The notes beneath the pieces are model-generated. The model was not told the origin of the DNA. It ran no database searches and saw nothing but the letters and a program-made list of their open reading frames with translations. Positions 6,469-25,527 of a stretch of DNA of 64,000 nucleotides are shown in pieces. The number at the start of each line of letters is the position of its first letter. Position 1 is the first letter of the stretch. The position numbers were made by a program, and so were the translations under genes. Source of the DNA: Vicinamibacterales bacterium (lineage in GTDB: Bacteria > Acidobacteriota > Vicinamibacteria > Vicinamibacterales > UBA2999); assembly GCA_050742535.1 (NCBI GenBank), contig JBOGIQ010000001.1, forward strand, positions 50-64,049, written 5' to 3'.

Positions 6469-6696
6469 GTCTCTCCTGCCGTGACGGATAGCTCATGGCA
6501 GCGTACGTGTCCCGGCCCCTCGTGCCAATGACAAAACGATGTCAGAGGGCCCTTTCGGGGTTTTTTTACCCTTTCTTTACATTTGAGTCGGTGTGAGACG
6601 CCCCAACCATGAGTCGCCAGGAAGAACACGAAGTTTTGGCCACACAGAACACAAAGATCACAATAAACGTGTCCTTCGTGGCTAGAGTTGACGGGA

Positions 6697-7656
6697 ATGA
6701 TTGATCTTGGAATGAACGAACGCGCGTGGGAGCTCGTCGATGCGGCGGCGGCACGCGCGCGCGAGCTGCGGATTGACGTGCAGACGATGCATTGCGGTGC
6801 TCGTGTGCTGGATGCCGGTGTGCACGCCGTGGGCGGACTGGCGGCCGGCCGCCTGCTCGCTGAGATCTGCATGGGCGGGTTCGGTCACATCGACTTCATC
6901 CCGCTCACCATCGGCGACGAGCCGCTGCCGGGGGTTCAGGTCTGGACGGATCATCCGGCCGAAGCGTGCATGGCGTCCCAGTACGCAGGCTGGGCCATCG
7001 ACCCGGAGGGATTCTTTGCGATGGGCTCCGGACCGCTGCGGGCGAAGGCGCGGGTGGAGAAGGAGCTCTTTGGGAAGCTCGGGTATGGGGAGGACGCGGG
7101 GCGCGGCGTGCTGGTGCTCGAGGGGCGCACGCTTCCGGGCAACGAGGTGGCAGCGTGGGTTGCGGAAAAGAGCGGCCTGACGCCGGCGGAAATCACGTTC
7201 GTGGTGGCTCCGACCGCAAGCCTCGCCGGGGGCGTGCAGATTGCGGCGCGGATCATCGAAACCGGGCTCCACAAGATGGACGCGCTGAAGTTCGACGTGA
7301 CCCGCGTGCTGAGCGCGACCGGCACTGCCCCCGTCCCGCCAGTCGCGAAGAACGACCTGCGCGCGATCGGCCGCACCAACGACTGCATTCTGTATGGAGG
7401 CCGCGCGCGCTACATCGTCCGCGCGCCAGACGAGACGCTGGCGGATCTGGCCGAGCGCCTGCCGTCGTCCGCGTCGAAGGACTACGGCACGCCGTTCCAC
7501 CAGATCTTCAAACGCTACGACAACGACTTTTATAAGATCGATCCGATGTTGTTCAGCCCGGCCGAAGTCTGGCTTACGAGCGCGATCACAGGCCGGACGT
7601 TTCATGCCGGCCGCCTCAATCCCGACGTGCTCGGCGCGTCGCTCTACGGCAACTGA
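6697..7656 (+). CDS. mch: Methenyltetrahydromethanopterin cyclohydrolase
   Basis: The translation (…VLDAGVHAVGGLAAGRLLAEICMGGFG…VWTDHPAEACMASQYAGWAI…FFAMGSGPLRAKA…YGGRARYIV…FYKIDPMLFSPAEVWL) matches Mch over its full length from memory. The start is ambiguous (TTG 6688, ATG 6697 or ATG 6712). Confidence 0.85.
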   Translation: MIDLGMNERAWELVDAAAARARELRIDVQTMHCGARVLDAGVHAVGGLAAGRLLAEICMGGFGHIDFIPLTIGDEPLPGVQVWTDHPAEACMASQYAGWAIDPEGFFAMGSGPLRAKARVEKELFGKLGYGEDAGRGVLVLEGRTLPGNEVAAWVAEKSGLTPAEITFVVAPTASLAGGVQIAARIIETGLHKMDALKFDVTRVLSATGTAPVPPVAKNDLRAIGRTNDCILYGGRARYIVRAPDETLADLAERLPSSASKDYGTPFHQIFKRYDNDFYKIDPMLFSPAEVWLTSAITGRTFHAGRLNPDVLGASLYGN

Positions 7657-8624
7657 TGCGCGTCCTGATCCTGAGCGCGCGGAGCGGATGGCACACCGAC
7701 GAGTTGTGCCGCGCCCTCACCGCGCGCGGGCATCAACCACGCATTGCTCCCTACGAATCGCTGGTGGCGGAATTCGGGGAACGTTCGAGTCGTTCGGATC
7801 GTTCGAGTCGTTCGATGACGTTCGGCCGTTCGAACGCGCACGATTCGAACGATTCGAACGTTCTCGCGTTTGACGCCGTACTCCCCCGCATCATCCCGAA
7901 CGGCTCGCTCGAGCAGATCATCTACCGTGTGGACGCGCTGCACTGGATCGAGGACCAGGGCATTCCCGTCGTGAACTCCGCGCGGGCGATCGAGCGTTCG
8001 GTGGACAAGTTCTACACGACGGCGCTCCTGCAGCAGGCGAGCCTGCCGGTGCCCGAAACGGTGGTCTGCGAGCGGGCGGATGACGCCATGGCGGCCATCC
8101 GGCGCATGCTCGACGGCGGCAGCGAGGTGATCATCAAGCCGATCTTCGGTTCGATGGGCCATGGGCTGGTCCGCGTCGCCGATGTCGAACTGGCATGGCG
8201 CGTGGTCCGTCCGCTCGAGCAGATGCGATCGGTGTTTTATGTGCAGCGCGCCATCGACCATGACGGCCGCGACGTCCGTCTCTTCGTCGTCGGCGGGCGT
8301 GTAGTGGGTGCGATCGAACGGACCGCTCCGGCCGGCGACTGGCGCACGAACGTCGCGCGCGGCGGCTCGGCGCGTGCGATCGATCCGCCGCCGGCCTGGC
8401 AGGAGCACGCGCTCATGGCGACAGCGGCAGTCGGCGCCGACTACGCCGGCGTGGACCTGTTGCTCTCGCCGAGCGGCGAGATCTTCGTGCTGGAAGTCAA
8501 CGGGATTCCCGGCTGGCAGGGACTTCAGGCCGCGACCGGTGTGGATGTTGCCGCGGCGATCGTGGAGCATGTGGAAACGCGCGCCGCCGGCATCCGCCGG
8601 TTCCGCGAACAGGTGAACGCGTGA
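7656..8624 (+). CDS. RimK-type ATP-grasp ligase (MptN/MfnD-like glutamate ligase of the H4MPT/methanofuran pathways)
   Basis: The ATG overlaps the mch stop (TGATG). It carries ATP-grasp motifs (IPVVNSARAIERSVDKFYT, VIIKPIFGSMGHGLVRV, FVLEVNGIPGW). It contains an in-frame repeat insertion at 7780-7864. Confidence 0.8.
   Translation: MRVLILSARSGWHTDELCRALTARGHQPRIAPYESLVAEFGERSSRSDRSSRSMTFGRSNAHDSNDSNVLAFDAVLPRIIPNGSLEQIIYRVDALHWIEDQGIPVVNSARAIERSVDKFYTTALLQQASLPVPETVVCERADDAMAAIRRMLDGGSEVIIKPIFGSMGHGLVRVADVELAWRVVRPLEQMRSVFYVQRAIDHDGRDVRLFVVGGRVVGAIERTAPAGDWRTNVARGGSARAIDPPPAWQEHALMATAAVGADYAGVDLLLSPSGEIFVLEVNGIPGWQGLQAATGVDVAAAIVEHVETRAAGIRRFREQVNA
7780..7864. repeat. Hexamer tandem-repeat hairpin (CGTTCGA/G units and their complement) inside the ATP-grasp CDS
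   Basis: GAACGTTCGAGTCGTTCGGATCGTTCGAGTCGTTCGATGACGTTCGGCCGTTCGAACGCGCACGATTCGAACGATTCGAACGTTC. The outer ~24 nt of each side are complementary, allowing G-U pairs. It is translated as ERSSRSDRSSRSMTFGRSNAHDSNDSN. Confidence 0.8.
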
Positions 8625-9604
8625 CGGCCGTGGCGGGCGAGCCGCAGCACCACATCGGCGTCGCACACGCATCGTGGATCATTGCCGGCCGTGCGCATCT
8701 CGCGTGCGTGCTCGAGGTCACTGCGCCGAAGCCGGGAAACGTGTCGCCCGGCCGGCCGTTCGCAGACATGCGCTACGAGGATTTTCTCCTCAGCGCCGAG
8801 GCGATTGCGCGGCCGCTCGAAGGCGCCGGCCGGCGGCCGCTCGGTGAAACCATCCTGCGGGCGGTGGAGGCAACGGCGTCCCGGACTCGCGCCAACACCA
8901 ACCTTGGCATTGTCCTGCTGCTGGCGCCGTTGGCGCGAGCCGCCATCCTGCTGCTCGATTCGCCGCCGCCGCCGGAGCGCGACCGCCGGCTGCGCAATCT
9001 GCGCACGGCAGTGGCGGGAGTGCTCGCGGACACGACGATCGACGATGCGAGGAATGCATACCGCGCGATCCGTCTCGCCAATCCGGGTGGACTCGGCACC
9101 GCCGAGGAACAGGACGTGACGGCCGAGCCGACGGTCACGCTGCTCGAGGCGATGCGGCTGGCCGCCGACCGCGACGGCATCGCGCGTGAATACGCGTCGT
9201 CGTACCAGACAACGTTTGAACGAGGTGTGCCTGCGCTGCTGCAGGCCCGTGCGGACGGGTTGGCGATGAGCGACGCGATTGTCGATTCGTACCTGACCCT
9301 TCTGGCGGGTACGCCGGACACGCACGTCGCGCGCCGGGGCGGCGACACGCTTGCCCGCCGCGTGTCGCAGCTTGCGGCCGATGCGCTGGCGGCCGGCGGA
9401 GTCCGCTCCGACGAGGGCCGGCTGCGCATCGCGGCAATGGATGCCTCGCTGCGCGATCCGCGCAACCTGGCGAATCCTGGAACCGCAGCTGACCTGACGG
9501 CCGCGGCAATTTTTGCCGCGCTCATCGTCGGTGGCTGGACCATCGGGCCGATCGACAGCGCGCGTGCTGCGGCACCGTACGAGCAAGGTTCGGAGGCATC
9601 ATGA
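8621..9604 (+). CDS. Triphosphoribosyl-dephospho-CoA synthase family protein (CitG-like, H4MPT-cluster type)
   Basis: The GTG overlaps the upstream stop (GTGA). EVTAPKPGNVSPGRPFADMRYEDFLLSAEAI and TNLGIVLLLAPLA are CitG/MdcB-like motifs. Confidence 0.75.
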   Translation: MTAVAGEPQHHIGVAHASWIIAGRAHLACVLEVTAPKPGNVSPGRPFADMRYEDFLLSAEAIARPLEGAGRRPLGETILRAVEATASRTRANTNLGIVLLLAPLARAAILLLDSPPPPERDRRLRNLRTAVAGVLADTTIDDARNAYRAIRLANPGGLGTAEEQDVTAEPTVTLLEAMRLAADRDGIAREYASSYQTTFERGVPALLQARADGLAMSDAIVDSYLTLLAGTPDTHVARRGGDTLARRVSQLAADALAAGGVRSDEGRLRIAAMDASLRDPRNLANPGTAADLTAAAIFAALIVGGWTIGPIDSARAAAPYEQGSEAS

Positions 9605-10131
9605 CGCCGCGGGGCGATTACCGCGTTTCGGTCACCAAGGACTATCTCGTCTTCTCGTCGGCCCATTTCATCACCTTCGCGGGGCATCGCTGCGAAGGCT
9701 TGCACGGTCATAACTACCGCGTGCGGGTCACGATCGAGGGCGCGCTTAACGAAGAGGCGTGGTTCGTGTTCGATTTCGTCGAGCTGAAGGGGATCATGAA
9801 ACGGCTCTGCGACGAGATCGACCATCTGGTGCTGCTGCCGCTCGACAGCGATCGCATCAAGGTCGAGGAGGAGGGCGAGATCGTCCGTGTCAGCGTGGAC
9901 GGCAAGCCGCGCTACACGTTCCCACGGCGCGATTGCGCCCTGCTGCCGATTCCGAATACCACTGTCGAGATGCTGGCGAAGCTGCTGACCGCACGCCTCA
10001 AGGACGCAATCGGCGCCGCAGCGTCGAAACCGCTGACCGCAATCGAGATGGAGGTCGAGGAGAATTTCGGGCAGACGGCGGTGTATCGGGAGGAGATAGG
10101 ACAGGAGACAAGAGACGGAGATAGGAGATAG
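9601..10131 (+). CDS. 6-pyruvoyl-tetrahydropterin synthase-like protein
   Basis: FSSAHFITFAGHRCEGLHGHNYRVRVTIEG...FVFDFVELK is the PTPS fold signature. The ATGA overlaps the upstream gene. Confidence 0.75.
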   Translation: MTPRGDYRVSVTKDYLVFSSAHFITFAGHRCEGLHGHNYRVRVTIEGALNEEAWFVFDFVELKGIMKRLCDEIDHLVLLPLDSDRIKVEEEGEIVRVSVDGKPRYTFPRRDCALLPIPNTTVEMLAKLLTARLKDAIGAAASKPLTAIEMEVEENFGQTAVYREEIGQETRDGDRR

Positions 10132-10160
10132 GAGGACCTTCCTCCTACCTCCTATCTCCC
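10088..10160. repeat. GGAGATA-type heptamer repeat forming a 20-bp hairpin (10117-10159) across two convergent gene ends
   Basis: 10117-10136 pairs with 10140-10159 with one A-C mismatch and a 3-nt loop. The stop of the PTPS-like gene (TAG 10129-10131) and the stop of the HisA/F-like gene (10152-10154) lie inside the two arms. There is no U-tract, so this is not a canonical intrinsic terminator. Confidence 0.8.
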
Positions 10161-10895
10161 ACGTTCCAGCCTCCCGGCGGCCGCAACATCGGCGGGTGTC
10201 AGCCGCCCGTCGTGCAGCGCCGTCGCGACGAGCGCGCCGTCGCACCCGATCGCCGCCAGGTCCCGCACGTCGTCGAGATGCCGGATGCCGCCGGCGGCGA
10301 TCAGTCTCGGCATGCGCACGGCCGCCCGGATTCGACGCATCATCGCCAGATCGGGTCCGGATCCGCTGCCGACGCGCGCAACGTCAAGAACGATCATTTC
10401 GAACGCCCCGGAAATAAATGCCCGCCGCGCCACCTCCTCGGGCAGCGTCGTGCCTGCGGCCTTGCCCATCGGCACGCCGCCGCGAAGATCGAGACTGAAT
10501 ACTGTCGGCCCCGGAGTGCCGAGCGTGATGTCCGCCAGCGCGTCGAACGAGGGCAGCGTCTCGAGGCCGATCACGACGGCGCGTGCCCCTGTCCGAATCA
10601 ATTGCCGCGCGTCCTCGGGCGTGGTGACGCCGCCGTCAACGTAGACCCGCATGCCGAGGCTGCTCACCGCGCGAATGACGTCGTGCTGGGGCCGGCCTGC
10701 TGCGATCGCGTTGAGGTCGGCAATGTAGACGTCGTGAATCTCGAACGTCTCCAGATACACACGCGCCAGCTTCACCGCGTCGCCGTCGATGGCGGCGCCG
10801 CCGGCCTCGCGAACGGGCGCATAGGTCTCGCGCTGTCCGCGACGCGCGTGTACGGCCAGGCCGTCCTTGAGATCGATGACGCCGATGATTCGCAC
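10152..10895 (-). CDS. HisA/HisF-family (beta/alpha)8-barrel protein of the H4MPT cluster
   Basis: The conserved part begins VRIIGVIDLKDGLAVHARRG... The GTG at 10893-10895 is preceded by AGGAGA with a 9-nt spacer. The 527-aa ORF in the track is an artefactual upstream extension. Confidence 0.75.
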   Translation of the reverse strand: MRIIGVIDLKDGLAVHARRGQRETYAPVREAGGAAIDGDAVKLARVYLETFEIHDVYIADLNAIAAGRPQHDVIRAVSSLGMRVYVDGGVTTPEDARQLIRTGARAVVIGLETLPSFDALADITLGTPGPTVFSLDLRGGVPMGKAAGTTLPEEVARRAFISGAFEMIVLDVARVGSGSGPDLAMMRRIRAAVRMPRLIAAGGIRHLDDVRDLAAIGCDGALVATALHDGRLTPADVAAAGRLERGR

Positions 10896-10913
10896 CGGAG
10901 ATATTCTCCTACT

Positions 10914-12620
10914 GTGATTCTCGGCTGGGACATTGGCGGCGTGAACACGAAGGTGGCATGCCTTGGCGACACCGGCGCGCTGACCGTCCGCTCGCGCCCC
11001 TTCGAACTGCAGCGGGAGCCAGATGCGCTCGTCCGCGTACTGCGCGATCTGGCCGCACAGGTTGGCGCAGGATCCATCGTCGAGTCCGGCTTCAGCCGGA
11101 TGACCGTATTCACGTGCGCGGTGACGATGACCGCCGAGCTCTCGCAGATGTTTCGGACCAAGCGTGAAGGGGTGCATTTCGTGCTCGACGCCGTGTCCGC
11201 CGCTTTTCCCGACGCGACGACGCGGGTGTTCACAACGGACGGCCGCTTTCTGACGATTGACACCGCTCGTGTCGAGCCGTTGGCGGTCGCCGCGGCGAAC
11301 TGGGCGGCCACGGCACGCATGGTTGCGTCCCGGTACCGCGACGCGATGCTCGTGGATGTCGGGACGACCACGACGGACATCATCCCGATCGTGAATGGGG
11401 ATGTGGTCGCCGAGGGGAAGACAGATCCGGAGCGTCTGGCGTCCGGCGAGCTGGTATATTCCGGCGCGCTGCGCACGCCGGTTGAGGCGATCGTGCACGA
11501 GGTGAGCGATCGTGGCGAGACCTTCGGCGTGTCCGCTGAAGGATTCGCGCTGATTGGCGACGTGCACGTGTGGCTGGGCCGGCTGGCGGCGGAGGACTAC
11601 ACGGTTCCGACGCCGGACGGTCGCCCTGCGACGCGCGAATTCGCCGGAGAGCGGATCGCGCGCGTGATCTGCGGCGATCGCGAGCTGGTTGGCGACTCTG
11701 CGCGCACGCACATTGCACATGCGATTGCCGCACAACAGGTGGCGGCCATCGCGGCGGCAATCCGGCGCGTGCGTTCACGTCATCCGTCTCTTCGTACAGC
11801 GGTCGTCACCGGTCTCGGTCACTTTATTGCGAGTGCGGCCGCTCGTTCTGCGTCGCTGGACGTCGTGTCGCTCGCGGACGACATCGGCGAGGATGCGGCA
11901 CGCTATGCGCCGGCAGCAGCGGTGGCGCTGTTGTGCGCGGACAGTCAGATAAGAGCGAATAGTCCGATAGAAGATCGTGGGGCAAACCGTGTCAGGCTTG
12001 CCTACCCGGACCCGACAGGGTCCGCGCCACGATCCGCGTTTGTGATCAAAGTCGGTGGCGGTCTGCTCGAACACATCGACCATCTCGATCGCGTCGTTGC
12101 GGCCATCGCCGATGTCGGCCGGACGCTGCGAGTCGTGGTCGTCCCTGGCGGCGGACCGTTCGCGGACGCGGTGCGCCGTGTCGATCGACGTCTGGCGCTC
12201 GGTGACGAGGAAGCACACTGGATGGCGATCCTCGGAATGGATCAGTACGCGCACCTGCTGGCGGCGCGAATCGATTCCGGAACCGTGGTTGCCGGACGCG
12301 AACAGATCGCGGACGCGCATCGCAGAACGCAGATTCCGGTGCTGGCTCCATCGGCATGGCTCAAGGCCGCTGACCCGCTTCCACACAGCTGGGACGTGAC
12401 GAGCGACAGCATCGCAGCCTGGGTGGCCGGCGAACTTGGCGCCGCGCGCCTGCTGTTGATCAAACCGCCCGGCGCGCGGGGTCCGGACCTCGTCGACGCG
12501 CACTTCCAGAAGACACAGCCGGCCGGGTGCGTCTGCGACTGTCTGGACGCCGATGAGGCGATCGGTCTGCTCAGCCGCGCCGCAGGGCACGACCGAGCGC
12601 ACGCACTCGACTCTCGCTGA
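10914..12620 (+). CDS. Fusion of a hydantoinase-like H4MPT-linked C1-pathway protein (MfnF-like) with an amino-acid-kinase-family protein (MfnE-like)
   Basis: The GTG at 10914 gives VILGWDIGGVNTKVA..., with GGAGA upstream. The N-terminal ~350 aa are hydantoinase_A-like (DVGTTTTDIIPI). After a repeat-containing linker the same frame continues VIKVGGGLLEH...VVVVPGGGPFAD, which is amino acid kinase-like. There is no in-frame stop between the two parts. Confidence 0.7.
   Translation: MILGWDIGGVNTKVACLGDTGALTVRSRPFELQREPDALVRVLRDLAAQVGAGSIVESGFSRMTVFTCAVTMTAELSQMFRTKREGVHFVLDAVSAAFPDATTRVFTTDGRFLTIDTARVEPLAVAAANWAATARMVASRYRDAMLVDVGTTTTDIIPIVNGDVVAEGKTDPERLASGELVYSGALRTPVEAIVHEVSDRGETFGVSAEGFALIGDVHVWLGRLAAEDYTVPTPDGRPATREFAGERIARVICGDRELVGDSARTHIAHAIAAQQVAAIAAAIRRVRSRHPSLRTAVVTGLGHFIASAAARSASLDVVSLADDIGEDAARYAPAAAVALLCADSQIRANSPIEDRGANRVRLAYPDPTGSAPRSAFVIKVGGGLLEHIDHLDRVVAAIADVGRTLRVVVVPGGGPFADAVRRVDRRLALGDEEAHWMAILGMDQYAHLLAARIDSGTVVAGREQIADAHRRTQIPVLAPSAWLKAADPLPHSWDVTSDSIAAWVAGELGAARLLLIKPPGARGPDLVDAHFQKTQPAGCVCDCLDADEAIGLLSRAAGHDRAHALDSR
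11083..11102. repeat. REP-type hairpin, family E (GAGTCCGGC-TTYA-GCCGGAT)
   Basis: GAGTCCGGCTTCAGCCGGAT lies inside the CDS and is translated ESGFSRM. Confidence 0.8.
11973..12034. repeat. Composite hairpin element, family B (GATCGTGG ... two hairpins ... CCACGATC)
   Basis: GATCGTGG GGCAAACC-GTGTCA-GGCTTGCC TAC CCGGACCC-GACA-GGGTCCGCG CCACGATC. It lies in the linker of the fused CDS. Confidence 0.85.
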
Positions 12621-13263
12621 CGACGCCGTTCCGGCCGTTGTCGCAGGCGGCGCCGCGAACGCCGGCGATATCGGCGCCGGCGTCGTGAACGCGTTCCAGA
12701 TCGTCGATCGTCAGGCTGCCCGCCACCGCAACGATTCGTCCCGATCCCCTGGCCCGCGCGACGAACGACCGGAGCGAGACGGATGTCATGAGCGTGGTGA
12801 GGCCGGGGCCGCATTTGTCGCAGGTGTCGAGCAGTACGCCGGCAGCGCGGCTGCGATCCGCAAGTGCAATCACTTCATCAGGTGTCGGCGCCGCGACTTT
12901 CTCGAAGTCTGCGTACGCAACCAGTACCAGATCCGCGGCGATGCTGTTGACCGCTTCTGACGTCAGCACGTCGGCCGCGGCATCGAGCCGTCCTCGCATC
13001 CCCGCGAACCCGACCTTGACGAACGCCGCATGTACCCGCGTCGCGGCGTGCGCGCCGCGGACGATGTCGTCGCGACCGGCTTCGCCGAGCGCCGCGCTCA
13101 CCGGGGCCCCGCCGGCGACCGCCGACGCGATTGATGCGAGGGCGGCGGGAGAAACCGGACCGAGCGGGCCGTTCGACGGCTCCTTCGCGTCGACGATGTC
13201 CGCGCCGCCGGCCAGCGCCGCTGCAGCCTCGGAGGCGTTTCGCACGCTCACCAGCAACCGCAT
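12571..13263 (-). CDS. mfnB: (5-formylfuran-3-yl)methyl phosphate synthase (MfnB, DUF556)
   Basis: MRLLVSVRNASEAAAALAGGADIVDAKEPSNGPLG...LLDTCDK.GPGL...AVAGSL...GVRGAACDNGRNG matches archaeal MfnB along its length from memory. The 3' end overlaps the convergent upstream CDS by 50 bp. Confidence 0.8.
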   Translation of the reverse strand: MRLLVSVRNASEAAAALAGGADIVDAKEPSNGPLGPVSPAALASIASAVAGGAPVSAALGEAGRDDIVRGAHAATRVHAAFVKVGFAGMRGRLDAAADVLTSEAVNSIAADLVLVAYADFEKVAAPTPDEVIALADRSRAAGVLLDTCDKCGPGLTTLMTSVSLRSFVARARGSGRIVAVAGSLTIDDLERVHDAGADIAGVRGAACDNGRNGVVSESRVRALGRALRRG

Positions 13264-13293
13264 GAGGTGGGAAGCCTACTATGATCGCCTTCC

Positions 13294-14061
13294 ATGGTGG
13301 ATTCGGCGCCGCTGGCCGGGCAAACGATGGTCATCACGGGAGCCTCGAGCGGCATCGGCCGCGGCATCGCACTCGCCGCCGCCCGCGCTGGCGCCGACGT
13401 CGCCCTCACGTACCGATCGAACGAAGCGGGCGTACGCCAGACCGCGGCGGACGTCGAGGCGATCGGCCGGCGTGCTGTCGTCACCCGCATGGATCTCGCG
13501 GACGCCCAGTCGATTCACGCGTTGGCGGACGAGGTCAGCGGGACGTTTGGCCGCATCGACGCCTGGGTGAACAACGCCGGCGCGGATATCGTGACCAGCG
13601 GCGGCGACGCCCTGTCGCGCCTCGACAAGCTCGATCTGCTGCTGCGCGTCGATCTGCGAGGCACGATGATCGCGTCGTGGAAAGCAGCGGAACTCATGGC
13701 GGCGCAATCCGATGGCGGGGTCATCATCAATCTCAGCTGGGATCACGTCGCCACCGGGATGGAAGGGTCGAACCCGCAGCTCTATTCCGCGGCCAAGGGC
13801 GCCATCACGTCGTTCAGCAAGTCGCTGGCACGCAGCGTCGCGCCGCGCGTGCGCGTGAATATCGTGGCGCCGGGCTGGATCGAAACGGCGTTCGGCTCGG
13901 GCGTCGATCGCGGCGTGTACCGCGCCGTTGCCGAGTCCACGCCGTTGAAGCGGTGGGGCAAGCCGGCCGATGTCGCCGGCGCAGTGGTGTTTCTCGCATC
14001 GGCGGCGGCGTCGTTTCTCACAGGCGAGACGATCAACGTCGGTGGGGGAGTGGTGATGTAG
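13294..14061 (+). CDS. SDR-family oxidoreductase
   Basis: TGASSGIGRG, NNAG and YSAAK motifs. The start lies only 30 bp from the divergent mfnB start. Confidence 0.8.
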   Translation: MVDSAPLAGQTMVITGASSGIGRGIALAAARAGADVALTYRSNEAGVRQTAADVEAIGRRAVVTRMDLADAQSIHALADEVSGTFGRIDAWVNNAGADIVTSGGDALSRLDKLDLLLRVDLRGTMIASWKAAELMAAQSDGGVIINLSWDHVATGMEGSNPQLYSAAKGAITSFSKSLARSVAPRVRVNIVAPGWIETAFGSGVDRGVYRAVAESTPLKRWGKPADVAGAVVFLASAAASFLTGETINVGGGVVM

Positions 14062-14100
14062 TGATGTGGGGCATCGTTGGGCGCGTTGGGAGTTTTCGAT

Positions 14101-14460
14101 ATGCCAACAAAAGAACGCACGTATAACGACACTGAGATTGCGGACCGGCTGAAAGATCTCCCCGGCTGGTATTTGGAAGACGGGTGGATCCGGCGCGTCT
14201 ACAAGACAGACGGCTGGCCGACGACGCTGATGCTGGTGAACGCCATCGGCTATCTCTCCGAAGCGGCGTACCACCATCCGGATCTGTCCGTGACCTGGGG
14301 ACGGCTGACGGTGAAGCTGTCGACGCACAGCGCCGGCGGCATCACCGACAAGGACTTCGAGCTGGCGCGCAAGATCGAGGATGTCGTCCTCTGGCGTCCG
14401 TCCGGCGGCTCGCTCGAGGGGACGCCGAACAAGTTCGTGCGGAGCGGCGATCCGCGTTGA
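14101..14460 (+). CDS. Pterin-4-alpha-carbinolamine dehydratase
   Basis: MPTKERTYNDTEIADRLKDLPGW...AAYHHPDLSVTWGRLTVKLSTHSAGGITDKDFELA is the typical PCD/DCoH pattern. Confidence 0.8.
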   Translation: MPTKERTYNDTEIADRLKDLPGWYLEDGWIRRVYKTDGWPTTLMLVNAIGYLSEAAYHHPDLSVTWGRLTVKLSTHSAGGITDKDFELARKIEDVVLWRPSGGSLEGTPNKFVRSGDPR

Positions 14461-14476
14461 TCGACCCTCAGCGATC

Positions 14477-15904
14477 GTGACAGCCAACGGGGTCACACGC
14501 GTACTGTTCGTCACCGGCAAGCTGGCAGAGCCGGCACTGCGGCGTGTGCTCTCGGAGGCGGACCTGCCGTTCAGCGTGGATGTGGCGGTGATGCGCATTA
14601 CCGTTGCCGCGCTGATGACGACGGAGTGGATCGCCCGCTTTCTGGAGGTTCCGTCCGGCACCGACCTGGTCATGATTCCCGGCCTGTGCGAAGGCGACGC
14701 CGCGGCCGTCGCTGCCAGCACGGGCGTGCGCGTCGAGAAGGGGCCCAAAGACCTGCGCGAGATCCCGCAGTATTTCGGCCGCGCCGAAGCGGCGCGCGAC
14801 TACGGCGCGTGGGACATCGAGATCCTCGCGGAAATCAACAACGCCCCGCGGCTGACACCGGCGGCCATCCGCGCGGCAGCGGAGTACTTCCGTACGTCGG
14901 GCGCCGACGTGATCGACATCGGCTGCACGCCCGGGCTGCAATTCCCAAACCTCGGCGCCATCGTTCGCGACCTCGCGTCAGCCGGGATGCGTGTGAGCAT
15001 CGACACGTTCGACCCGCACGAAATCCGCACCGCGGTCGAGGCCGGCGCCGAGCTCGTCCTCAGCGTCAACGGCACCAATATCGATGTCGCCCGCGATCTG
15101 GCCGGGTCGCCGGCGCGTGTCGTTGTCGTTCCTGATCTCGGCGCGTCGCTCGACACGATGGATCGCAGCGTCGACAAGCTGGAGGCGTGGGGCGTGCCGT
15201 ATCTGCTCGATCCGATCCTCGAGCCGATCGGGTTCGGCTTCACGGCATCGATCGAGCGCTACGCCGGGACCCGCCGCCGCTACCCGGATGCCGACATGTT
15301 GATGGGGATTGGGAACCTCACGGAACTGACGGCGGCGGATTCGACCGGCGTGAACGCGATGCTCATCGCCGTCTGTCAGGAGCTCGGCATTCGGTCCGTC
15401 CTGACGACGGAGGTCATTCCGTGGGCCAGAGGAGCCGTGCGCGAAATAGGGATCGCGCGTCAGCTGATGCACTACGCCGTCACACGCAGGACGATCCCGA
15501 AGGGCGTGGACGATCGGCTGGTGACGATCAAGGACCCGTCGGTCCTCAGCTACAGCGAGGGCGAGCTGCGTGCCCTGCAGGCGCGCATCACCGACCCGAA
15601 CTTTCGCATCTTTGCCGACGCGGACGCGATTACGGTGTTCAACAACGAGCGGTTCGTGCGCGGCACGAACATCCAGGAAATCTTCAATCAACTTGGCGTG
15701 GACGAGCCGTCGCACGCCTTCTATCTGGGCAAGGAACTGGCGCGGGCGAGTCTGGCGGTCACGCTCGGAAAGACGTACCGTCAGGAAGGATCGCTGTCGT
15801 GGGGCTATCTGACGCCGCCCGACGATGCGAAGTCCGAGCACGTGACGCTGACGCAGAAACCGGCACGCCTGAAGGGGCGCCCTACGAACGCGAACCCGTC
15901 ATGA
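14477..15904 (+). CDS. Dihydropteroate-synthase-like protein (archaeal/H4MPT type)
   Basis: GTG at 14477. The N-terminal domain (VLFVTGKLAEPALRRVL) is followed by a pterin-binding-like barrel (GADVIDIGCTPG, VSIDTF, MGIGNLTELT). The C-terminal tail is encoded by a family C hairpin. Confidence 0.75.
   Translation: MTANGVTRVLFVTGKLAEPALRRVLSEADLPFSVDVAVMRITVAALMTTEWIARFLEVPSGTDLVMIPGLCEGDAAAVAASTGVRVEKGPKDLREIPQYFGRAEAARDYGAWDIEILAEINNAPRLTPAAIRAAAEYFRTSGADVIDIGCTPGLQFPNLGAIVRDLASAGMRVSIDTFDPHEIRTAVEAGAELVLSVNGTNIDVARDLAGSPARVVVVPDLGASLDTMDRSVDKLEAWGVPYLLDPILEPIGFGFTASIERYAGTRRRYPDADMLMGIGNLTELTAADSTGVNAMLIAVCQELGIRSVLTTEVIPWARGAVREIGIARQLMHYAVTRRTIPKGVDDRLVTIKDPSVLSYSEGELRALQARITDPNFRIFADADAITVFNNERFVRGTNIQEIFNQLGVDEPSHAFYLGKELARASLAVTLGKTYRQEGSLSWGYLTPPDDAKSEHVTLTQKPARLKGRPTNANPS
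15862..15886. repeat. REP-type hairpin, family C (GGCRCCCC-TGAA-GGGGYGCC plus CTACG), degenerate copy
   Basis: GGCACGCC TGAA GGGGCGCC CTACG, translated ARLKGRPTN. Confidence 0.7.
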
Positions 15905-16515
15905 GTGAGATGCAACGAGGCAGCGACGTCCGCACGTCCGAATACCCGATCGACACGCTGTTCCTGGATCGATGGTCGCCGCGCGCGATGTCCGGCGAAG
16001 CGCTCAGCGACGCCGAGCTGCTGACGTTGTTCGAGGCGGCGCATTGGGCTCCCTCATCCGGTAATTCGCAGCCGTGGCGGTTCCTCTATGCCCGCCGCGA
16101 CACGGAGCACTGGCCGCTGTTCTTCGATTTGCTGAACGAAGGCAACAAGACCTGGTGCCATCGCGCCGCCGCGCTGCTCGTGTTCATCTCGCGCACGACG
16201 AACGAGAAGTCGGGCCGCGCGCTCGTCACCCATTCGTATGACACCGGCGCCGCCTGGATGAGCCTTGCCCTGCAGGGGTGGATCAAGGGGCTGGTCGTGC
16301 ACGGGATGGCCGGGTTCGATTACGCCCGCGCGAAAGACGCGCTGCACGTGCCGGATGACTTCACGGTCGAGGCAATGGCTGCCATCGGCCGGCTCGGGCC
16401 GAAGGAGGATCTGCCGCCGCAGCATCTCTCGCGGGAATTCCCCGGTCAGCGCCGGCCGGTCGCCGAACTCGTGTTCGCGGGACCGTTTCGCCCGGACGGT
16501 GGAGTCCGGCTTTAG
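15901..16515 (+). CDS. Nitroreductase-family protein
   Basis: The ATGA overlaps the upstream gene. RWSPRAM...AAHWAPSSGNSQPWRFLY is the nitroreductase signature. Confidence 0.75.
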   Translation: MSEMQRGSDVRTSEYPIDTLFLDRWSPRAMSGEALSDAELLTLFEAAHWAPSSGNSQPWRFLYARRDTEHWPLFFDLLNEGNKTWCHRAAALLVFISRTTNEKSGRALVTHSYDTGAAWMSLALQGWIKGLVVHGMAGFDYARAKDALHVPDDFTVEAMAAIGRLGPKEDLPPQHLSREFPGQRRPVAELVFAGPFRPDGGVRL

Positions 16516-16521
16516 CCGGAT
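16502..16521. repeat. REP-type hairpin, family E
   Basis: GAGTCCGGCTTTAGCCGGAT. The TAG in its loop (16513-16515) is the nitroreductase stop codon. Confidence 0.85.
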
Positions 16522-16534
16522 AGCCGATTAGCTC

Positions 16535-18013
16535 ATGTCCACGGTGATCGAGCTCACCGAAGCTCCAGATCCTGCACGCTGCTGCGAGCTGTTCGCCGGG
16601 CTGCCGTACCGGCTCTTCCTCGACAGCGCGACGCCGGCGACACGCCTCGGCCGCTTCTCCTTCCTGACCGCGGATCCTGTTGCGATCGTACAGAGCAAGG
16701 GCGCGCGGACCGAGGTACACGATGGGCGAAACGGCGTGCGTGTCGTTGCTGGCGACGCGCTCCTGCATGTCGGCGCGCTGCTCGGTCCATACCGGCGAAC
16801 CGCGCTCGAAGGGCTGCCGCCTTTTCAGGGCGGCGCCGCCGGCTATCTCGCCTATGACTGGGGACGGGTGGTCGAGCGCATTCCGGAGAATCGCCACGAT
16901 GATCTCGGACTGCCGGACGCGGTCTTCGGAATTTATGACTGGGTGATTGGGTGGGATCACCGCGCATCGCGCGCGTGGCTGATTTCGACTGGGATTCCTG
17001 AAACGGGGGACGCGGCGCAAGCGCGGAGGGCAGACGAGCGCGCGAAGACGATTGTGGCGAGACTAAATGGGGATCGTGGCGCGGACGTTGGTACGTCCGC
17101 GTCTGGCGAGCCTGACAAGGCTCGCCCCACGATCGCGGATGCTCCCTCGCATCCTGTCGAAGGCGGCTGGTGGGATCGACGCCTCGACGTCCGATCCTCC
17201 TTCACGCATGAGGGGTATCTCGACGCGGTCGCTCGCGTCCGCGAGTACATCCTCGCCGGGGACATCTTCCAGACCAACCTGTCGCAGCGGTTCGAGGCGC
17301 CGCTGACCGAGTCGCCGTGGCAGCTGTACCGCCGGATGCGGATTCGCAACGCCGCGCCGTTCGCCGCGTTCTTCGACACGCCGGACGTGTCCGTGGTCAG
17401 CGCGTCGCCCGAGCGTTTCCTGCGCGTGGACGAGGGCGGCCATGTCGAGACGCGGCCGATCAAGGGCACGATGCCGCGCGGCTTCGGCCCCGAGCACGAC
17501 GGCTTACTCGGTCAGGCTCTGTCGGAAAGCGCCAAGGACCGCGCCGAGAACCTGATGATCGTCGACCTGATGCGCAACGATCTGTCGCGCGTGTGCAGCG
17601 CGGGCACCGTGCGCGTGCCGGAGCTGTTTACCCTCGAACACTACGCGACGGTGCACCACCTCGTCTCGACGGTGGTCGGCGAGCTGGCGCCCGGGCGCGA
17701 TGCGCTCGACCTGCTCCGCGCCGCCTTTCCCGGCGGATCGATTACCGGCGCGCCGAAGGTCCGGGCCATGGAAATCATCGCCGAGCTCGAGCCGTCGCAG
17801 CGCAGCGTCTACTGCGGGTCCCTTGGGTACTGCAGCGTGACTGGCGCGCTCGATACCAGCATCGCCATCCGGACGGTGATCGCACCGGCAGGGCGCGGTC
17901 GCGTGTATTTCAGCGCCGGCGGCGGCATCGTGGCCGATTCGGACCCCGAGCAGGAGTACCGCGAGACGCTCCACAAGGCCCGTGGCATGATCGACGTTTT
18001 GAGGCACCCGTGA
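16535..18013 (+). CDS. pabB: Aminodeoxychorismate synthase component I
   Basis: Chorismate-binding enzyme motifs (DIFQTNLSQRF, SASPERFL, RPIKGT, AENLMIVDLMRND, PGGSITGAPK). It contains a 63-bp family B element in frame. Confidence 0.8.
   Translation: MSTVIELTEAPDPARCCELFAGLPYRLFLDSATPATRLGRFSFLTADPVAIVQSKGARTEVHDGRNGVRVVAGDALLHVGALLGPYRRTALEGLPPFQGGAAGYLAYDWGRVVERIPENRHDDLGLPDAVFGIYDWVIGWDHRASRAWLISTGIPETGDAAQARRADERAKTIVARLNGDRGADVGTSASGEPDKARPTIADAPSHPVEGGWWDRRLDVRSSFTHEGYLDAVARVREYILAGDIFQTNLSQRFEAPLTESPWQLYRRMRIRNAAPFAAFFDTPDVSVVSASPERFLRVDEGGHVETRPIKGTMPRGFGPEHDGLLGQALSESAKDRAENLMIVDLMRNDLSRVCSAGTVRVPELFTLEHYATVHHLVSTVVGELAPGRDALDLLRAAFPGGSITGAPKVRAMEIIAELEPSQRSVYCGSLGYCSVTGALDTSIAIRTVIAPAGRGRVYFSAGGGIVADSDPEQEYRETLHKARGMIDVLRHP
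17072..17134. repeat. Composite hairpin element, family B
   Basis: GATCGTGG CGCGGACG-TTGGTA-CGTCCGCG TCT GGCGAGCC-TGACAA-GGCTCGCC CCACGATC. It is exactly 63 bp and is translated as part of NGDRGADVGTSASGEPDKARPTIADA. Confidence 0.9.
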
Positions 18014-18097
18014 AGTGGAAAACTGGAAAACTGGAAAAGTAGAAAAGGTCGAAAAGTAGGAAAGTCGCCACTTTTCCACCTTTCCATTTTTCAACTT
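18014..18097. repeat. AT-rich octamer repeat (TGGAAAAC-like) forming a long imperfect hairpin between pabB and pabA
   Basis: GTGGAAAACTGGAAAACTGGAAAAGTAGAAAAGGTCGAAAAGTAGGAAAGT cgcc ACTTTTCCACCTTTCCATTTTTCAACTTTTG. The arms are complementary with several mismatches. Confidence 0.75.
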
Positions 18098-18109
18098 TTG
18101 TACTTACAA

Positions 18110-18790
18110 ATGGTTCTGCTCATCGATAACTACGACTCGTTCGTGCACAACCTCGCCCGCTACGTGCGCGAGCTGGGTTGGGAAGCCGTGGTTCATCGTA
18201 ACGACGAGATGACCGTCGAAGACGTGGAGCGGCTCGCGCCGTCGCACATCATCATCTCGCCGGGGCCGTGCACGCCGACCGAGGCCGGGATTTCGACCGA
18301 CGTTGTCCGCCGTCTCGGCCCGACCACTCCCATTCTTGGCGTCTGCCTGGGCCATCAGTGCATCGGCGCCGCGTACGGCGGCCCGATCGTCAGGGCCGGC
18401 CGTCCGGTCCACGGCAAGACCTCGGCCCTGGTGCACGATGGGACGAGCCTCTTCACCGGCCTGCCGTCGCCGATTCGCGTTGCCCGGTATCACTCGCTGG
18501 TCATCGCCAGACCCGACGTGCCGCCGGAACTGCGCGTGCTGGCGACGGCCCGCGACGATCAGGAAGTGATGGCGGTGGAGCATCGCGAGCATCCGGTGAT
18601 CGGCGTCCAGTTCCATCCGGAATCCGCGGCGACCGAATACGGCTATGCGATGCTCGATCGGTTTCTCCGCGGCGATCGGGCGCGGCTTGCGGATGTCGCC
18701 GCACGGGCCGACGGGGCGCCGGGCACGCCGCCTCCCGTCGAGGACGAACCGCGGACGTTCGTCCCTCCTCCGGTGGAGCATGTGCGGTGA
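18110..18790 (+). CDS. pabA: Aminodeoxychorismate/anthranilate synthase component II (glutamine amidotransferase)
   Basis: MVLLIDNYDSFVHNLARY, PILGVCLGHQ and VQFHPES motifs. Confidence 0.8.
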   Translation: MVLLIDNYDSFVHNLARYVRELGWEAVVHRNDEMTVEDVERLAPSHIIISPGPCTPTEAGISTDVVRRLGPTTPILGVCLGHQCIGAAYGGPIVRAGRPVHGKTSALVHDGTSLFTGLPSPIRVARYHSLVIARPDVPPELRVLATARDDQEVMAVEHREHPVIGVQFHPESAATEYGYAMLDRFLRGDRARLADVAARADGAPGTPPPVEDEPRTFVPPPVEHVR

Positions 18791-19653
18791 CCGACACGCA
18801 CACCATCGTGTGGGTCGATGGAAAGCGGTTTCCGTCGGACGGCGCGCATATCTCGGCGCGCGATCGCGGGTTTACGCTCGCCGACGGTGTCTTCGAGACG
18901 ATGAAGGCGCGGAACGGGAAGGTCTTTCATCTCGACCGTCATCTGACGCGCATCGATAGCGCGCTCCGGACCTTGGACATCCCCCCGCCGGCCGAACTGC
19001 GGGAGTGGGTGGACGCGGCGATTCACGCGGCGCACCTCCCCGAAGCCAGCATTCGCCTCACGGTGAGCCGGGGAGTCGCCCCCGGAGGCGTCGGCGCGCC
19101 GCCTGACCCCGTACCGACGGTCGTCGTGACGGTCGCGCCTCCTCCGGTGTTCGGCGCGGCAGTCTACGAGACCGGGCTGACGGCTCACGTGGCGTCGGGC
19201 CGGCGGAACGAGCATGCGATCACGGCTGGACTGAAGACGCTGGCCTACACCGATGCGATCCTGGCGCTGATTGAGGCCCGCCGGGCCGGCGCCGACGAGG
19301 TGCTGTTTCTCGACACCGCCGGGCATTGCTCGGAAGCGTCGGCCAGCAACCTCTTCGCGGTGATTGGCGGCAGGCTGGCAACGCCGCCCACGTCGTGCGC
19401 GGCGCTTCCCGGCATCACGCGCCGCGCGGTGATCGAACTGGCGGCGGAACATGGGCTGTCCGTGGACGAACGGCCGTTCGGCCTCGACGAGTTGAACGCC
19501 GCGAACGAGGCATTCCTGACCAGTTCGCTGCGCGGCATTGCGCCACTCGTGCGGGTCGGCGGTCACCCGATTGGAACAGGAACGCCAGGCGCGGTCACTC
19601 GAACGGTGATGGCGGCATATGCCGCGCTCGTCACAGCGGAGTGCGGCGAGTGA
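18787..19653 (+). CDS. pabC: Class IV aminotransferase-fold protein, probable aminodeoxychorismate lyase
   Basis: The GTG overlaps the pabA stop (GTGA). DRGFTLADGVFETM, ...EASASNLF and GITR motifs are present, in a context directly after pabB and pabA. Confidence 0.7.
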   Translation: MTDTHTIVWVDGKRFPSDGAHISARDRGFTLADGVFETMKARNGKVFHLDRHLTRIDSALRTLDIPPPAELREWVDAAIHAAHLPEASIRLTVSRGVAPGGVGAPPDPVPTVVVTVAPPPVFGAAVYETGLTAHVASGRRNEHAITAGLKTLAYTDAILALIEARRAGADEVLFLDTAGHCSEASASNLFAVIGGRLATPPTSCAALPGITRRAVIELAAEHGLSVDERPFGLDELNAANEAFLTSSLRGIAPLVRVGGHPIGTGTPGAVTRTVMAAYAALVTAECGE

Positions 19654-20225
19654 TCATCGAAACGATCGTCACCACCATTTCGGCGGATGGCGAGGTGAAC
19701 TGCGCCCCGATGGGCGTCGAATGGAATCCTGACGTTGAACCGGAGACGATTGTTCTGAAGCCGTTCCTGGAGACGGCCACGTATCGAAATGTCCTCGCCA
19801 CCCGTACCGCCGTCGTCAATCTCATCGATGATGTGCGGGTGTTTGCAAAGGCGGCGATCAGCAATCCGGCCTACGAGACGGTGCCCGCGCAGGTCGTTCG
19901 CGGCGTCGCGCTGGCCGACGCCTGTTCGTGGCGCGAGCTCGAGGTAACCGGAATCGACAGCACCCCTCCGCGATCGCGAATCGACACCCGGACCGTGCAT
20001 CGCCAGGTCAGGCGGGAGTTCATCGGCTTCAATCGCGCCCGCCACGCCGTGCTCGAGACGGCAATCTACGCGACGCGTGTCCACCTCCTGGGGCGCGAGT
20101 ATCTTCTCAGCGAGGTCGAGCGGCTGCAGGTCATCGTCGACAAGACGGCCGGTCCGCGTGAATTCGAGGCGATGGCGCTGCTGGTTGAGTACATTCGCAG
20201 CGCACCCGCGGTGGTGAAATCGTGA
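19650..20225 (+). CDS. DUF447-family protein (H4MPT-cluster associated)
   Basis: The GTG overlaps the pabC stop. VIIETIVTTISADGEVNCAPMGV...AVVNLIDDVRVFA resembles DUF447 from memory. Confidence 0.6.
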   Translation: MIIETIVTTISADGEVNCAPMGVEWNPDVEPETIVLKPFLETATYRNVLATRTAVVNLIDDVRVFAKAAISNPAYETVPAQVVRGVALADACSWRELEVTGIDSTPPRSRIDTRTVHRQVRREFIGFNRARHAVLETAIYATRVHLLGREYLLSEVERLQVIVDKTAGPREFEAMALLVEYIRSAPAVVKS

Positions 20226-20289
20226 CCCCTCTCATTACCCACGTAGTGTCCGCCTTCAGGCGGACCCCCGCGGTGGTGAAATCGTGACC
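20205..20289. mobile_element. Family A hairpin insertion (20228-20266) flanked by a perfect 23-bp direct duplication
   Basis: CCCGCGGTGGTGAAATCGTGACC occurs at 20205-20227 and again at 20267-20289. The 39 bp between them contain CGTAGT GTCCGCC TTCA GGCGGAC. Confidence 0.85.
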
Positions 20290-21273
20290 ACCACCGGACT
20301 CGAAGTCTTCGTTGAGGCGCCCGCCCGGCTGCACTTCGGCGTGCTCGATCTCCGCGGCGAACTGGGGCGGTGGTTCGGCGGCATCGGCGCGGCCGCTCCG
20401 GAGGCGACGCTGCTCGTGTCTGCGTCCAGGGCCCTGACCGTGACCGCGCATGGGCAGGACGCGCAGCGGGCCTCGGCGTTCGCGAAGCGGTTTCTCGATC
20501 ACCATCACATTCGCGAAGGCGCTCGCGTGTGCGTACACCGTTCGCTGCCGCGGCACGCCGGTCTCGGCTCCGGAACGCAGCTGGCGCTTTCCGTCGCGCG
20601 GGCGCTGGCCGAGCTGTACGGACTCGATACCGATCCGCCGACGCTGGCGCAGGCTGTCGGCCGCGCGCGCCGGTCCGCAATCGGCACGTGGATCTTTTCC
20701 GGCGGCGGTCTGGTGGTCGAAGGCGGCCGGCACACGGGATTCGACAATTGCGGGCCGTTGATTGCCCGTGTTCCGTTCCCGTCCGAATGGCGATGTGTCG
20801 TCGCGGTTCCGGGCGGCAAGGGACTCAGCGGTGTTCGCGAAGAAGAGGCCTTCTACCGGCTGCCGATGCCACGGCAGGAAGAGGTGGAGCGCGTGGCGCA
20901 TCTCGTCCTGCTGCTGCTGTTGCCGTCGGTCGTCGAAGGCGACCTCTCGAACTTCGGCCGGGCCCTCTCGCAGATCCAGGAGATTACCGGCCGCTGGTTC
21001 GCGGCCGTCCAGGGCAGCACGTTCGCCAAGGGCGTCAGCGAGGAGCTGGTGCACCGGATGCGCGAATGGCGCGCCCTGGGCGTCGGCCAGAGCTCCTGGG
21101 GTCCCGCTGTCTACGGCATCGTCGGCCGCGATGACGATGCAAAGAGGCTGGCGGACCGGGCACGGGACTTTATCGGGTCCGAGGGCGTCGTCTACGCAGG
21201 TCCGTTCCGCAGCGAAGGCGCTCGCGTGTGGACCACGACCGCCCAGCTGCCAACGCCCAACCAGACGATATGA
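20284..21273 (+). CDS. mptG: Beta-ribofuranosylaminobenzene 5'-phosphate synthase (GHMP-kinase fold)
   Basis: The translation starts VFVEAPARLHFGVLDL and contains SLPRHAGLGSGTQLALSVA. These match RFAP synthase from memory. Confidence 0.75.
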   Translation: MTTTGLEVFVEAPARLHFGVLDLRGELGRWFGGIGAAAPEATLLVSASRALTVTAHGQDAQRASAFAKRFLDHHHIREGARVCVHRSLPRHAGLGSGTQLALSVARALAELYGLDTDPPTLAQAVGRARRSAIGTWIFSGGGLVVEGGRHTGFDNCGPLIARVPFPSEWRCVVAVPGGKGLSGVREEEAFYRLPMPRQEEVERVAHLVLLLLLPSVVEGDLSNFGRALSQIQEITGRWFAAVQGSTFAKGVSEELVHRMREWRALGVGQSSWGPAVYGIVGRDDDAKRLADRARDFIGSEGVVYAGPFRSEGARVWTTTAQLPTPNQTI

Positions 21274-23207: not shown

Positions 23208-23234
23208 AGACTGAGGGCTGAAGACTGAAGGCTG
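23197..23234. repeat. Heptamer tandem repeat CTGAAGA (about 5 units), single arm
   Basis: CTGAAGACTGAAGACTGAGGGCTGAAGACTGAAGGCTG. It spans the MFS stop codon (23205-23207) and ends 6 nt before the next ATG. Confidence 0.85.
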
Positions 23235-23239
23235 CCACC

Positions 23240-25506: not shown

Positions 25507-25527
25507 CATATCGGGGATACGTCTCCG

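Follow-up and report, generated by a model that had tools for sequence, protein, structure and literature searches.

A methanopterin and methylofuran biosynthesis island in a Vicinamibacterales acidobacterium, with a candidate enzyme pair for its missing pterin reduction

Vicinamibacteria abound in soil and have few cultured representatives, and a group of cofactor genes carried by one of them raises the question of which enzyme performs the last reduction of methanopterin. The genes lie in a 64,000-nucleotide stretch of DNA, hereafter the window, which corresponds to bases 50–64049 of the largest contig (70 kb) of a Vicinamibacterales metagenome-assembled genome (MAG; GCA_050742535.1, 6.59 Mb in 696 contigs, with an estimated completeness of 96% and contamination of 0.65%). 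They form an island of 16 genes at positions 6688–21273, with an MfnF–MfnE fusion counted as one gene and two genes on the minus strand, which a preliminary description of the DNA had read as a cluster for the synthesis of tetrahydromethanopterin (H4MPT) and methanofuran cofactors. The cluster is real, correctly read and of a known type, and it leaves one testable lead, the pair formed by a short-chain dehydrogenase/reductase (SDR) and a pterin-4a-carbinolamine dehydratase (PCD). Since the same island was published for Gemmatimonadota in 2016, the remaining question is the enzyme of the last methanopterin reduction.

The island and the formaldehyde oxidation pathway

The reading frames between positions 6688 and 21273 were scanned with Pfam and NCBIfam profiles, and the bit scores were compared with the model cut-offs. 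All 16 gene identities are backed by matches in these collections (Table 1), and the Mch, MfnB and MptG assignments held (394, 184 and 172 bits on TIGR03120, PF04476 and TIGR00144, respectively). The island is very probably the cofactor-supply half of an H4MPT- and methylofuran-dependent formaldehyde oxidation in a Vicinamibacterales acidobacterium. Gene identities, pathway completeness and synteny can be read directly from the genomes, and the enzyme roles are predicted from characterized homologues, those of Orf5/MyfB, Orf9/MfnF, Orf17, Orf21/MfnE and Orf22/MfnB being given in PMC8141765. PabB, PabA and PabC would convert chorismate to p-aminobenzoate (pABA), which MptG would consume with phosphoribosyl pyrophosphate (PRPP) in the first committed methanopterin step, yielding β-ribofuranosylaminobenzene 5'-phosphate (RFAP). 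The PTPS-like and DHPS-like proteins would supply the pterin and attach it, the latter joining it to the RFAP-derived arylamine, the CitG-like and DUF447 proteins would carry out further methanopterin steps, and the SDR, probably with PCD, would act in pterin redox chemistry. In the furan branch, for which homologues of MfnB, MfnE and MfnF are all present in the island, MfnB would make the furan, the fused MfnE–MfnF protein would activate it and couple it to the tyrosine/tyramine–glutamate part, and the MyfB-like ligase together with the HisA/F-like Orf17 would finish methylofuran. Orf5 is MyfB, the methylofuran polyglutamate ligase, and Orf17 is required for methylofuran synthesis in Methylorubrum extorquens (PMC8141765); the RimK-type ligase of the island probably builds the polyglutamate tail of methylofuran rather than sarcinapterin.

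Mch is the sole catalytic C1-transfer enzyme encoded within the island. As the preliminary description had noted, fae, mtd and fhcABCD are not found within the 64-kb window; they are carried by other contigs of the MAG. Contig C27 encodes fae (23010–23480; 234 bits on PF08714 and 249 bits on TIGR03126, against a cut-off of 118) and, directly after it, an Mpt_N-domain methylene-H4MPT dehydrogenase of the MtdA/MtdB type (Mpt_N, 121–124 bits). Contig C249 encodes fhcA (679 bits against 393), fhcD (408 against 293) and fhcB (270 bits, under the cut-off of 328), and fhcC is interrupted by a contig break, its parts lying at the edge of C249 and on C406, the latter with 201 bits against 131. With Fae, Mtd and the Fhc complex, Mch would oxidize formaldehyde to formate, and the NAD-dependent formate dehydrogenase of the window, which was confirmed near the island as previously described (35586–40224; 771 bits on TIGR01591), would oxidize formate to CO2.

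The source of formaldehyde is probably the pyrroloquinoline quinone (PQQ) alcohol dehydrogenases. At least eight PQQ dehydrogenases of the methanol/ethanol family score above the family cut-off in the genome, with many weaker ones in addition. An Asp-Tyr-Asp (DYD) motif is typical of lanthanide-dependent enzymes, and the best of these dehydrogenases (C3:51172–52710) has WDYDG together with a vicinal pair of Cys residues; the family models do not separate XoxF from other PQQ alcohol dehydrogenases, so that the DYD motif is the only mark observed. The nearest such gene (C1:65505–67121), just past the window and about 44 kb downstream of the island, lacks DYD. By its gene content, the genome is predicted to encode the route from formaldehyde through formate to CO2, and the capacity for C1 oxidation suggested earlier is borne out by fae and the Mpt_N dehydrogenase on C27, fhc on C249/C406 and the PQQ dehydrogenases.

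Several observations weigh against this assignment of the island. A number of members (MptN/MyfB, MfnE, MfnF, MfnB, the DHPS-like protein and fhcB) are recognized at the family level only, under the equivalog cut-offs, and the putative PabC falls under every PabC and IlvE equivalog cut-off and owes its name to its position. The ATP-grasp_3 gene that follows fae, mtd and DUF1464 on C27, away from the island, is possibly MfnD/MyfA. Neither hexulose-phosphate synthase (hps) of the ribulose monophosphate (RuMP) pathway nor RuBisCO was found in the genome. Finally, the dihydrofolate reductase (DHFR) family PF00186 has no match in this 96% complete genome, nor is there an AfpA-like protein in it, the best TIGR02700 matches reaching 22–29 bits and covering the wrong region of that model.

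A complete formaldehyde route that depends on methanopterin would mean that a minority of Vicinamibacteria (Mch occurs in 12 of the 301 sampled genomes of the class, distributed over 3 of 22 families) handle C1 units as methylotrophs do. With no marker of the RuMP pathway or the Calvin cycle found, growth on C1 compounds is not claimed, and both this absence and the patchy occurrence of Mch in the class would suit a pathway that only detoxifies formaldehyde, whether internal (from demethylations or methoxylated aromatics) or taken up, without energy-yielding oxidation of methanol or methylamines and without methylotrophic growth. H4MPT-linked formaldehyde oxidation described in 2021 from MAGs of Group 18 Acidobacteria, family UBA6911, also comes without upstream C1 oxidation modules (bioRxiv 10.1101/2021.04.09.439258). 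We consider pure detoxification possible but somewhat doubtful, given the many PQQ methanol/ethanol-family dehydrogenases, one of them with the lanthanide-type motif, the NAD-linked formate dehydrogenase and molybdenum cofactor maturation genes on the same contig, through which reducing power could be harvested, and the sister Gemmatimonadetes island, which lies beside xoxF and is expressed (PMC5103831).

Table 1. Positions, strands and profile support of the island genes and of the formate dehydrogenase in the window (scores in bits; "against" precedes the model cut-off)
Feature	Position	Strand	Support and remarks
mch, methenyl-H4MPT cyclohydrolase	6688–7656	+	PF02289 402.6; TIGR03120 394 against 229
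RimK-type ATP-grasp ligase (Orf5/MyfB; MptN-like)	7656–8624	+	PF08443 107; TIGR00768 198 against 143; MptN model 238, under cut-off 350
CitG-like (Orf7 type)	8621–9604	+	PF01874 251.6; CitG/MdcB equivalog models far under cut-offs; member of the H4MPT-linked gene set
PTPS-like (Orf19 type), pterin branch	9601–10131	+	PF01242 79
HisA/HisF-like (Orf17 type)	10152–~10895 (start approximate)	−	PF00977 125; TIGR00734 hisAF_rel 109, under cut-off
Fused MfnF-like (Orf9) and MfnE-like (Orf21)	~10914–12620 (start approximate)	+	TIGR03123 308 against 244
mfnB (Orf22), 4-(hydroxymethyl)-2-furancarboxaldehyde-phosphate (4-HFC-P) synthase	12571–13263	−	PF04476 183.6
Classical SDR	13294–14061	+	adh_short_C2 176; motifs TGASSGIG, NNAG, YSAAK
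PCD (COG2154)	14077–14460 (likely ATG 14101)	+	PF01329 95; NF002017 95 against 80
DHPS-like (Orf20/MJ0301 type)	14381–15904	+	DUF6513, Pterin_bind, DUF4346; TIGR00284 196, under cut-off 257
Nitroreductase family	15901–16515	+	PF00881 53; start overlaps stop of DHPS-like gene
pabB, aminodeoxychorismate synthase component I	16535–18013	+	TIGR00553 363 against 328, sole model above cut-off
pabA, glutamine amidotransferase	18098–18790	+	PF00117 187; TIGR00566 214 against 121
Class IV aminotransferase, pabC (aminodeoxychorismate lyase) by position	~18793–19653 (start approximate)	+	PF01063 190
DUF447	~19641–20225 (start approximate)	+	DUF447_N 75; DUF447_C 46; invariably next to mptG
mptG, RFAP synthase	20284–21273	+	TIGR00144 172 against 113.5; archaeal equivalog NF040726 189, under cut-off 328; GHMP kinase fold
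NAD-type formate dehydrogenase, outside the island proper	35586–40224	+	NuoE/F-like subunit 35586–37379, nuoF_fam 356; molybdopterin alpha subunit 37330–40224, TIGR01591 771 against 666

Conservation, phylogeny and relation to known systems

The gene order of the island is common to nine Vicinamibacteria and more than 20 Gemmatimonadales genomes. In the latter it runs Mch–MyfB–CitG–PTPS–HisAF(−)–MfnF–MfnE–MfnB(−) and continues, after MfnB, with SDR–PCD–DHPS-like–PabB–PabA–DUF447–MptG, so that 14 of the 16 window genes stand in the same order, with protein identities of 50–84%, the nitroreductase and PabC being the sole genes that differ in occurrence from genome to genome. The block SDR–PCD–DHPS-like recurs in islands of Actinomycetota and Chloroflexota, and in those of Planctomycetota the SDR adjoins the DHPS-like gene, a PCD being observed in one locus. 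The preliminary description had proposed that pabBAC and the extra redox genes were lineage-specific additions to the pathway; the shared order in Gemmatimonadales and the recurrence of the SDR–PCD block in further phyla show that SDR, PCD, PabB and PabA are not, and the proposal stands for the nitroreductase, PabC being variable. An orthologue of this PabC was detected at the equivalent place in one Gemmatimonadaceae genome only (50% identity), and the protein has many close metagenomic relatives. Orthologues of the nitroreductase are found in a genome of the same genus (64% identity) and in a planctomycete (58%), neither of which adjoins H4MPT genes; none was detected at E ≤ 1e-10 in 27 other island-bearing genomes, and the Gemmatimonadales islands lack it. 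These orthologues away from H4MPT genes and the negative result in the 27 genomes rule out a conserved pathway member, and on this comparison the gene is an insertion particular to the lineage of the window.

The fused frame joins a hydantoinase-like "H4MPT-linked C1 transfer" domain (TIGR03123, MfnF-like) to an amino-acid-kinase domain (MfnE-like), the MfnF model matching residues 235–574 (234 bits) and the MfnE model residues 611–747 (73 bits), both under the archaeal cut-offs. There is no stop codon between the two domains, and the same fusion occurs in a genome of the same genus and in one Gemmatimonadota MAG (loci L028 of genome G285 and L075, respectively), whereas MfnF and MfnE are separate, adjoining genes in about 35 other loci; the fusion is therefore real and recent. 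It unites in one protein two enzymes that act in consecutive steps of furan-cofactor synthesis.

Among species-representative genomes, the closest Mch proteins belong to Acidobacteriota/Vicinamibacterales MAGs (70–74% identity), in line with the acidobacterial lineage proposed in the preliminary description, followed by about 25 Gemmatimonadales MAGs (63–69%). Mch was found in 15 of 401 sampled genomes of the phylum and in 64 of 301 sampled genomes of Gemmatimonadota (the unpublished G757 included). In the Mch tree (98 rows), the window groups with genomes of the same genus, family and order, and this Vicinamibacterales group is sister to Gemmatimonadota with a joint support of 99. The MptG tree recovers the same clade (support of 97) with Vicinamibacterales nested within Gemmatimonadota, and in both trees another family of Vicinamibacteria takes a basal position outside the two groups. 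Other Acidobacteriota occupy at least three further places in the Mch tree, beside Methylomirabilota, beside Anaerolineae and near Actinomycetota/Planctomycetota. These separate placements indicate that the pathway entered the phylum several times, and by these phylogenies Acidobacteriota hold several unrelated versions of it. The two trees, which the preliminary description had proposed as a check for horizontal transfer, both set the Vicinamibacterales–Gemmatimonadota clade apart from other Acidobacteriota; as judged from them, this version of the island is one exchanged as a unit between the two groups. The sister relation in one tree and the nesting in the other give no single direction of transfer.

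Synteny with Gemmatimonadales islands at 50–84% protein identity, and a database Mch at 80% identity that is labelled Longimicrobiales, might suggest that the contig is a Gemmatimonadota fragment misbinned into an acidobacterial MAG. This is highly improbable, as the window clusters, by both Mch and MptG, with genomes of the same genus, family and order and with Acidobacteriota/Vicinamibacterales MAGs, and its Mch does not fall inside Gemmatimonadota; the low estimated contamination of the MAG, the uniform GC content (0.65–0.69) and DUF3738/TIGR03435, encoded on the same 70-kb contig as the island, point the same way.

The closest known system is the methanol-utilization/THMPT biosynthesis contig of Gemmatimonadetes, described with soil proteome support (Butterfield et al. 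2016, PeerJ 4:e2687, PMC5103831), with which the island shares its gene order and a single clade in both the Mch and MptG trees. The island of the window differs in the additional nitroreductase and pabC genes, the fusion of MfnF to MfnE and a host from a different phylum, and it has no attached fae, mtd, fhc or PQQ dehydrogenase, these being on other contigs or, for the nearest PQQ alcohol dehydrogenase, about 44 kb away. The preliminary description had held that an origin in a known methylotrophic lineage would make the cluster unremarkable; the host is not a classical methylotroph, but the sister island had already been published. Group 18 Acidobacteria have the same pathway in the same phylum but belong to a different class, and no description of the pathway for Vicinamibacteria was found in the literature searched, which did not take in the distribution survey of Adam et al. 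2019.

The "archaeal-like" clusters of the methylotrophic Proteobacteria M. extorquens, Methylobacillus flagellatus and Methylosinus trichosporium have the families mch, orf5/myfB, orf7, orf9/mfnF, orf17, orf19, orf20, orf21/mfnE, orf22/mfnB and mptG in common with the window, as well as pabB and pcbD, which encodes PCD (PMC8141765, PMC3615186, PMC4109929). They are usually distributed over several islands that also contain fae, mtd and fhc, whereas the window holds a compact island without these genes, and Proteobacteria finish methanopterin with DmrA or AfpA/DmrB (PMC6193120), whereas the window genome has neither and carries the conserved SDR instead. The archaeal methanofuran (MfnA–F) and methanopterin (MptG, MJ0301, MptN and DmrX) pathways provide homologues for the MfnB, MfnE, MfnF, RFAP and DHPS-like steps, but the window proteins fall under all archaeal equivalog cut-offs, pABA would come from PabBAC and DmrX is lacking.

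The dihydromethanopterin reductase gap and the SDR–PCD pair

Two lineages only of bacterial dihydromethanopterin reductases are known, DmrA (DHFR family) and AfpA/DmrB (PMC6193120), and Afp has been described in a review as not recognizable in Planctomycetes (PMC5020050). With no known reductase in the genome, the methanopterin route as annotated is incomplete. The absence of DmrA and AfpA is repeated in nine Vicinamibacteria and eight Gemmatimonadota island-bearing genomes, and, Planctomycetota aside, almost all genomes of the SDR type also lack DHFR-family genes. The enzyme gap thus concerns the whole island type, which comes without either known lineage, and covers Planctomycetes too, and this makes the conserved SDR–PCD pair a concrete, testable candidate to fill it.

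An AfpA-like flavoprotein (90–127 bits) is present in 12 of 60 Mch-positive genomes, from Desulfobacterota, Anaerolineae, two Actinomycetota and one Acidobacteriota group, which make up one half of the Mch tree, and SDR and PCD are absent from all 12 loci of these genomes. AfpA was confirmed inside the island at one locus only (L101, 7 kb from mch), lying elsewhere outside the 10-kb flanks. Counted by island-bearing genomes, 23 have the SDR only, 11 AfpA only, four neither and none both. This exclusion comes down essentially to a single split in the Mch tree and to one independent contrast on well-supported branches, for which reason no significance is claimed for it. DUF447 was also considered as an AfpA substitute and is ruled out, since the DUF447–MptG adjacency is present in both the SDR-type and the AfpA-type islands.

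SDRs linked to the cluster in five phyla fall into a single clade (support of 97), well separated from the SDR paralogues of the window genome. Indeed, the best paralogue of the window SDR within its genome is 32% identical to it, compared with 49–64% for orthologues from other phyla and 37–44% for those from Planctomycetota. The absence of AfpA from genomes with the SDR beside the DHPS-like gene, the five-phylum clade and its distinctness from the paralogues make the SDR the foremost candidate for this step, perhaps in cooperation with PCD, as is the case for dihydropteridine reductase when pterins are recycled. We tentatively suggest that SDR and PCD constitute a third, non-homologous way of keeping methanopterin in the tetrahydro state, either as the missing dihydromethanopterin reductase or as a DHPR/PCD-like repair of oxidized H4MPT in aerobes; the pair would take the place of AfpA/DmrB and DmrA in Vicinamibacteria, Gemmatimonadota, Thermoleophilia-type Actinomycetota and some Chloroflexota and Planctomycetota. 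If true, the pair would be a third type of dihydromethanopterin reductase or recycling system.

The SDR does not group by its motifs or scores with FolM, PTR1 or DHPR: its glycine motif is TGASSGIG, it lacks TGxxxRxG, which we take to be the FolM signature, and the pteridine reductase model scores 135 bits (cut-off 288), a value that dozens of other SDR models equal or exceed. Among solved structures, its best matches are FabG-like and generic SDRs, and neither these structures nor the NCBIfam models indicate a substrate; the protein may nevertheless work like FolM, PTR1 or DHPR though not a member of those families. The PCD retains the catalytic His-His-Pro core, with a visible pattern E-x3-H-H-P...W...H...D that is presumably the PCD catalytic motif, and is the only PCD of the genome. 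A Biopterin_H gene of the phenylalanine hydroxylase type is located on contig C38, and the single PCD could serve its product. The pair might on these grounds be a FolM/DHPR-like reductase and a PhhB-like dehydratase that recycle the pterin of phenylalanine hydroxylase and adjoin the DHPS-like gene merely as pterin handlers. We regard this as unlikely, since SDR and PCD lie directly beside the DHPS-like gene in the H4MPT islands of Acidobacteriota, Gemmatimonadota, Actinomycetota and Chloroflexota (the SDR also in Planctomycetota) and are missing from the island type whose genomes have AfpA; the missing FolM signature likewise argues against it.

A caveat to the SDR–PCD candidate comes from folate metabolism. 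FolA-type PF00186 proteins are absent here and in most of the Vicinamibacteria, Gemmatimonadota, Actinomycetota and Chloroflexota checked among 30 island-bearing genomes, and folP is present. These genomes must hold some other dihydrofolate reductase, which could perform the methanopterin reduction instead of the SDR. In the Acidobacteriota families f51 and f89 (loci L039, L040, L042 and L043), a different SDR stands beside the DHPS-like gene; it belongs to a separate clade, is 28–34% identical to the window SDR and occurs in genomes also lacking AfpA. An SDR may thus have been recruited to this position twice, on independent occasions.

The pab genes, neighboring genes and further contigs

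The pabBAC set had been described as dedicated to the cofactor pathway, which does not hold: it is the single pab set of the genome and no extra copy. No second, folate-dedicated set was found in the genome, the sole paralogues being trpE (568 bits on TIGR00564, against 518) and trpG in a trpEGDCFB operon on C143. As this other PabB/PabA-like pair belongs to the trp operon, the island set is the only predicted source of pABA in the genome, and with a normal folP on C80 it probably feeds both folate and methanopterin. In proteobacterial methylotrophs, pabB has likewise been reported beside H4MPT genes, and a pcbD (PCD)–mptG island has been reported in Methylosinus (PMC3615186, PMC4109929).

Immediately downstream of the island, the gene at 21867–23207 had been taken for an oxalate/formate-family transporter. 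The oxalate/formate models stay under their cut-offs, and an L-lactate transporter of the major facilitator superfamily fits better (NF049980, 347 bits against 320). Two MoeA genes and a MobA gene are found at 25507–29394, between the island and the formate dehydrogenase, and probably mature the molybdenum cofactor of this enzyme; the second MoeA carries a fused domain that resembles periplasmic binding proteins. A 701-residue protein is encoded on the minus strand (33417–35522), immediately upstream of the formate dehydrogenase and divergent from it; its match to aldehyde:ferredoxin oxidoreductase is only weak and partial (135 bits, cut-off 868).

On C249 (locus L005, 909–8970), fhcB is separated by about 4 kb from fhcA–fhcD–fhcC, which is unusual for the normally contiguous fhcCDAB. 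The gap holds an esterase, an Amidohydro_3 protein, an unassigned protein of 282 residues and a small protein with NCBIfam matches to topoisomerase I/III models at their C-terminal end. On C27 (locus L004, 10975–15430), fae and mtd are followed by DUF1464, the ATP-grasp_3 gene and a DinB-family gene, and another small part of the methylofuran pathway may lie here.

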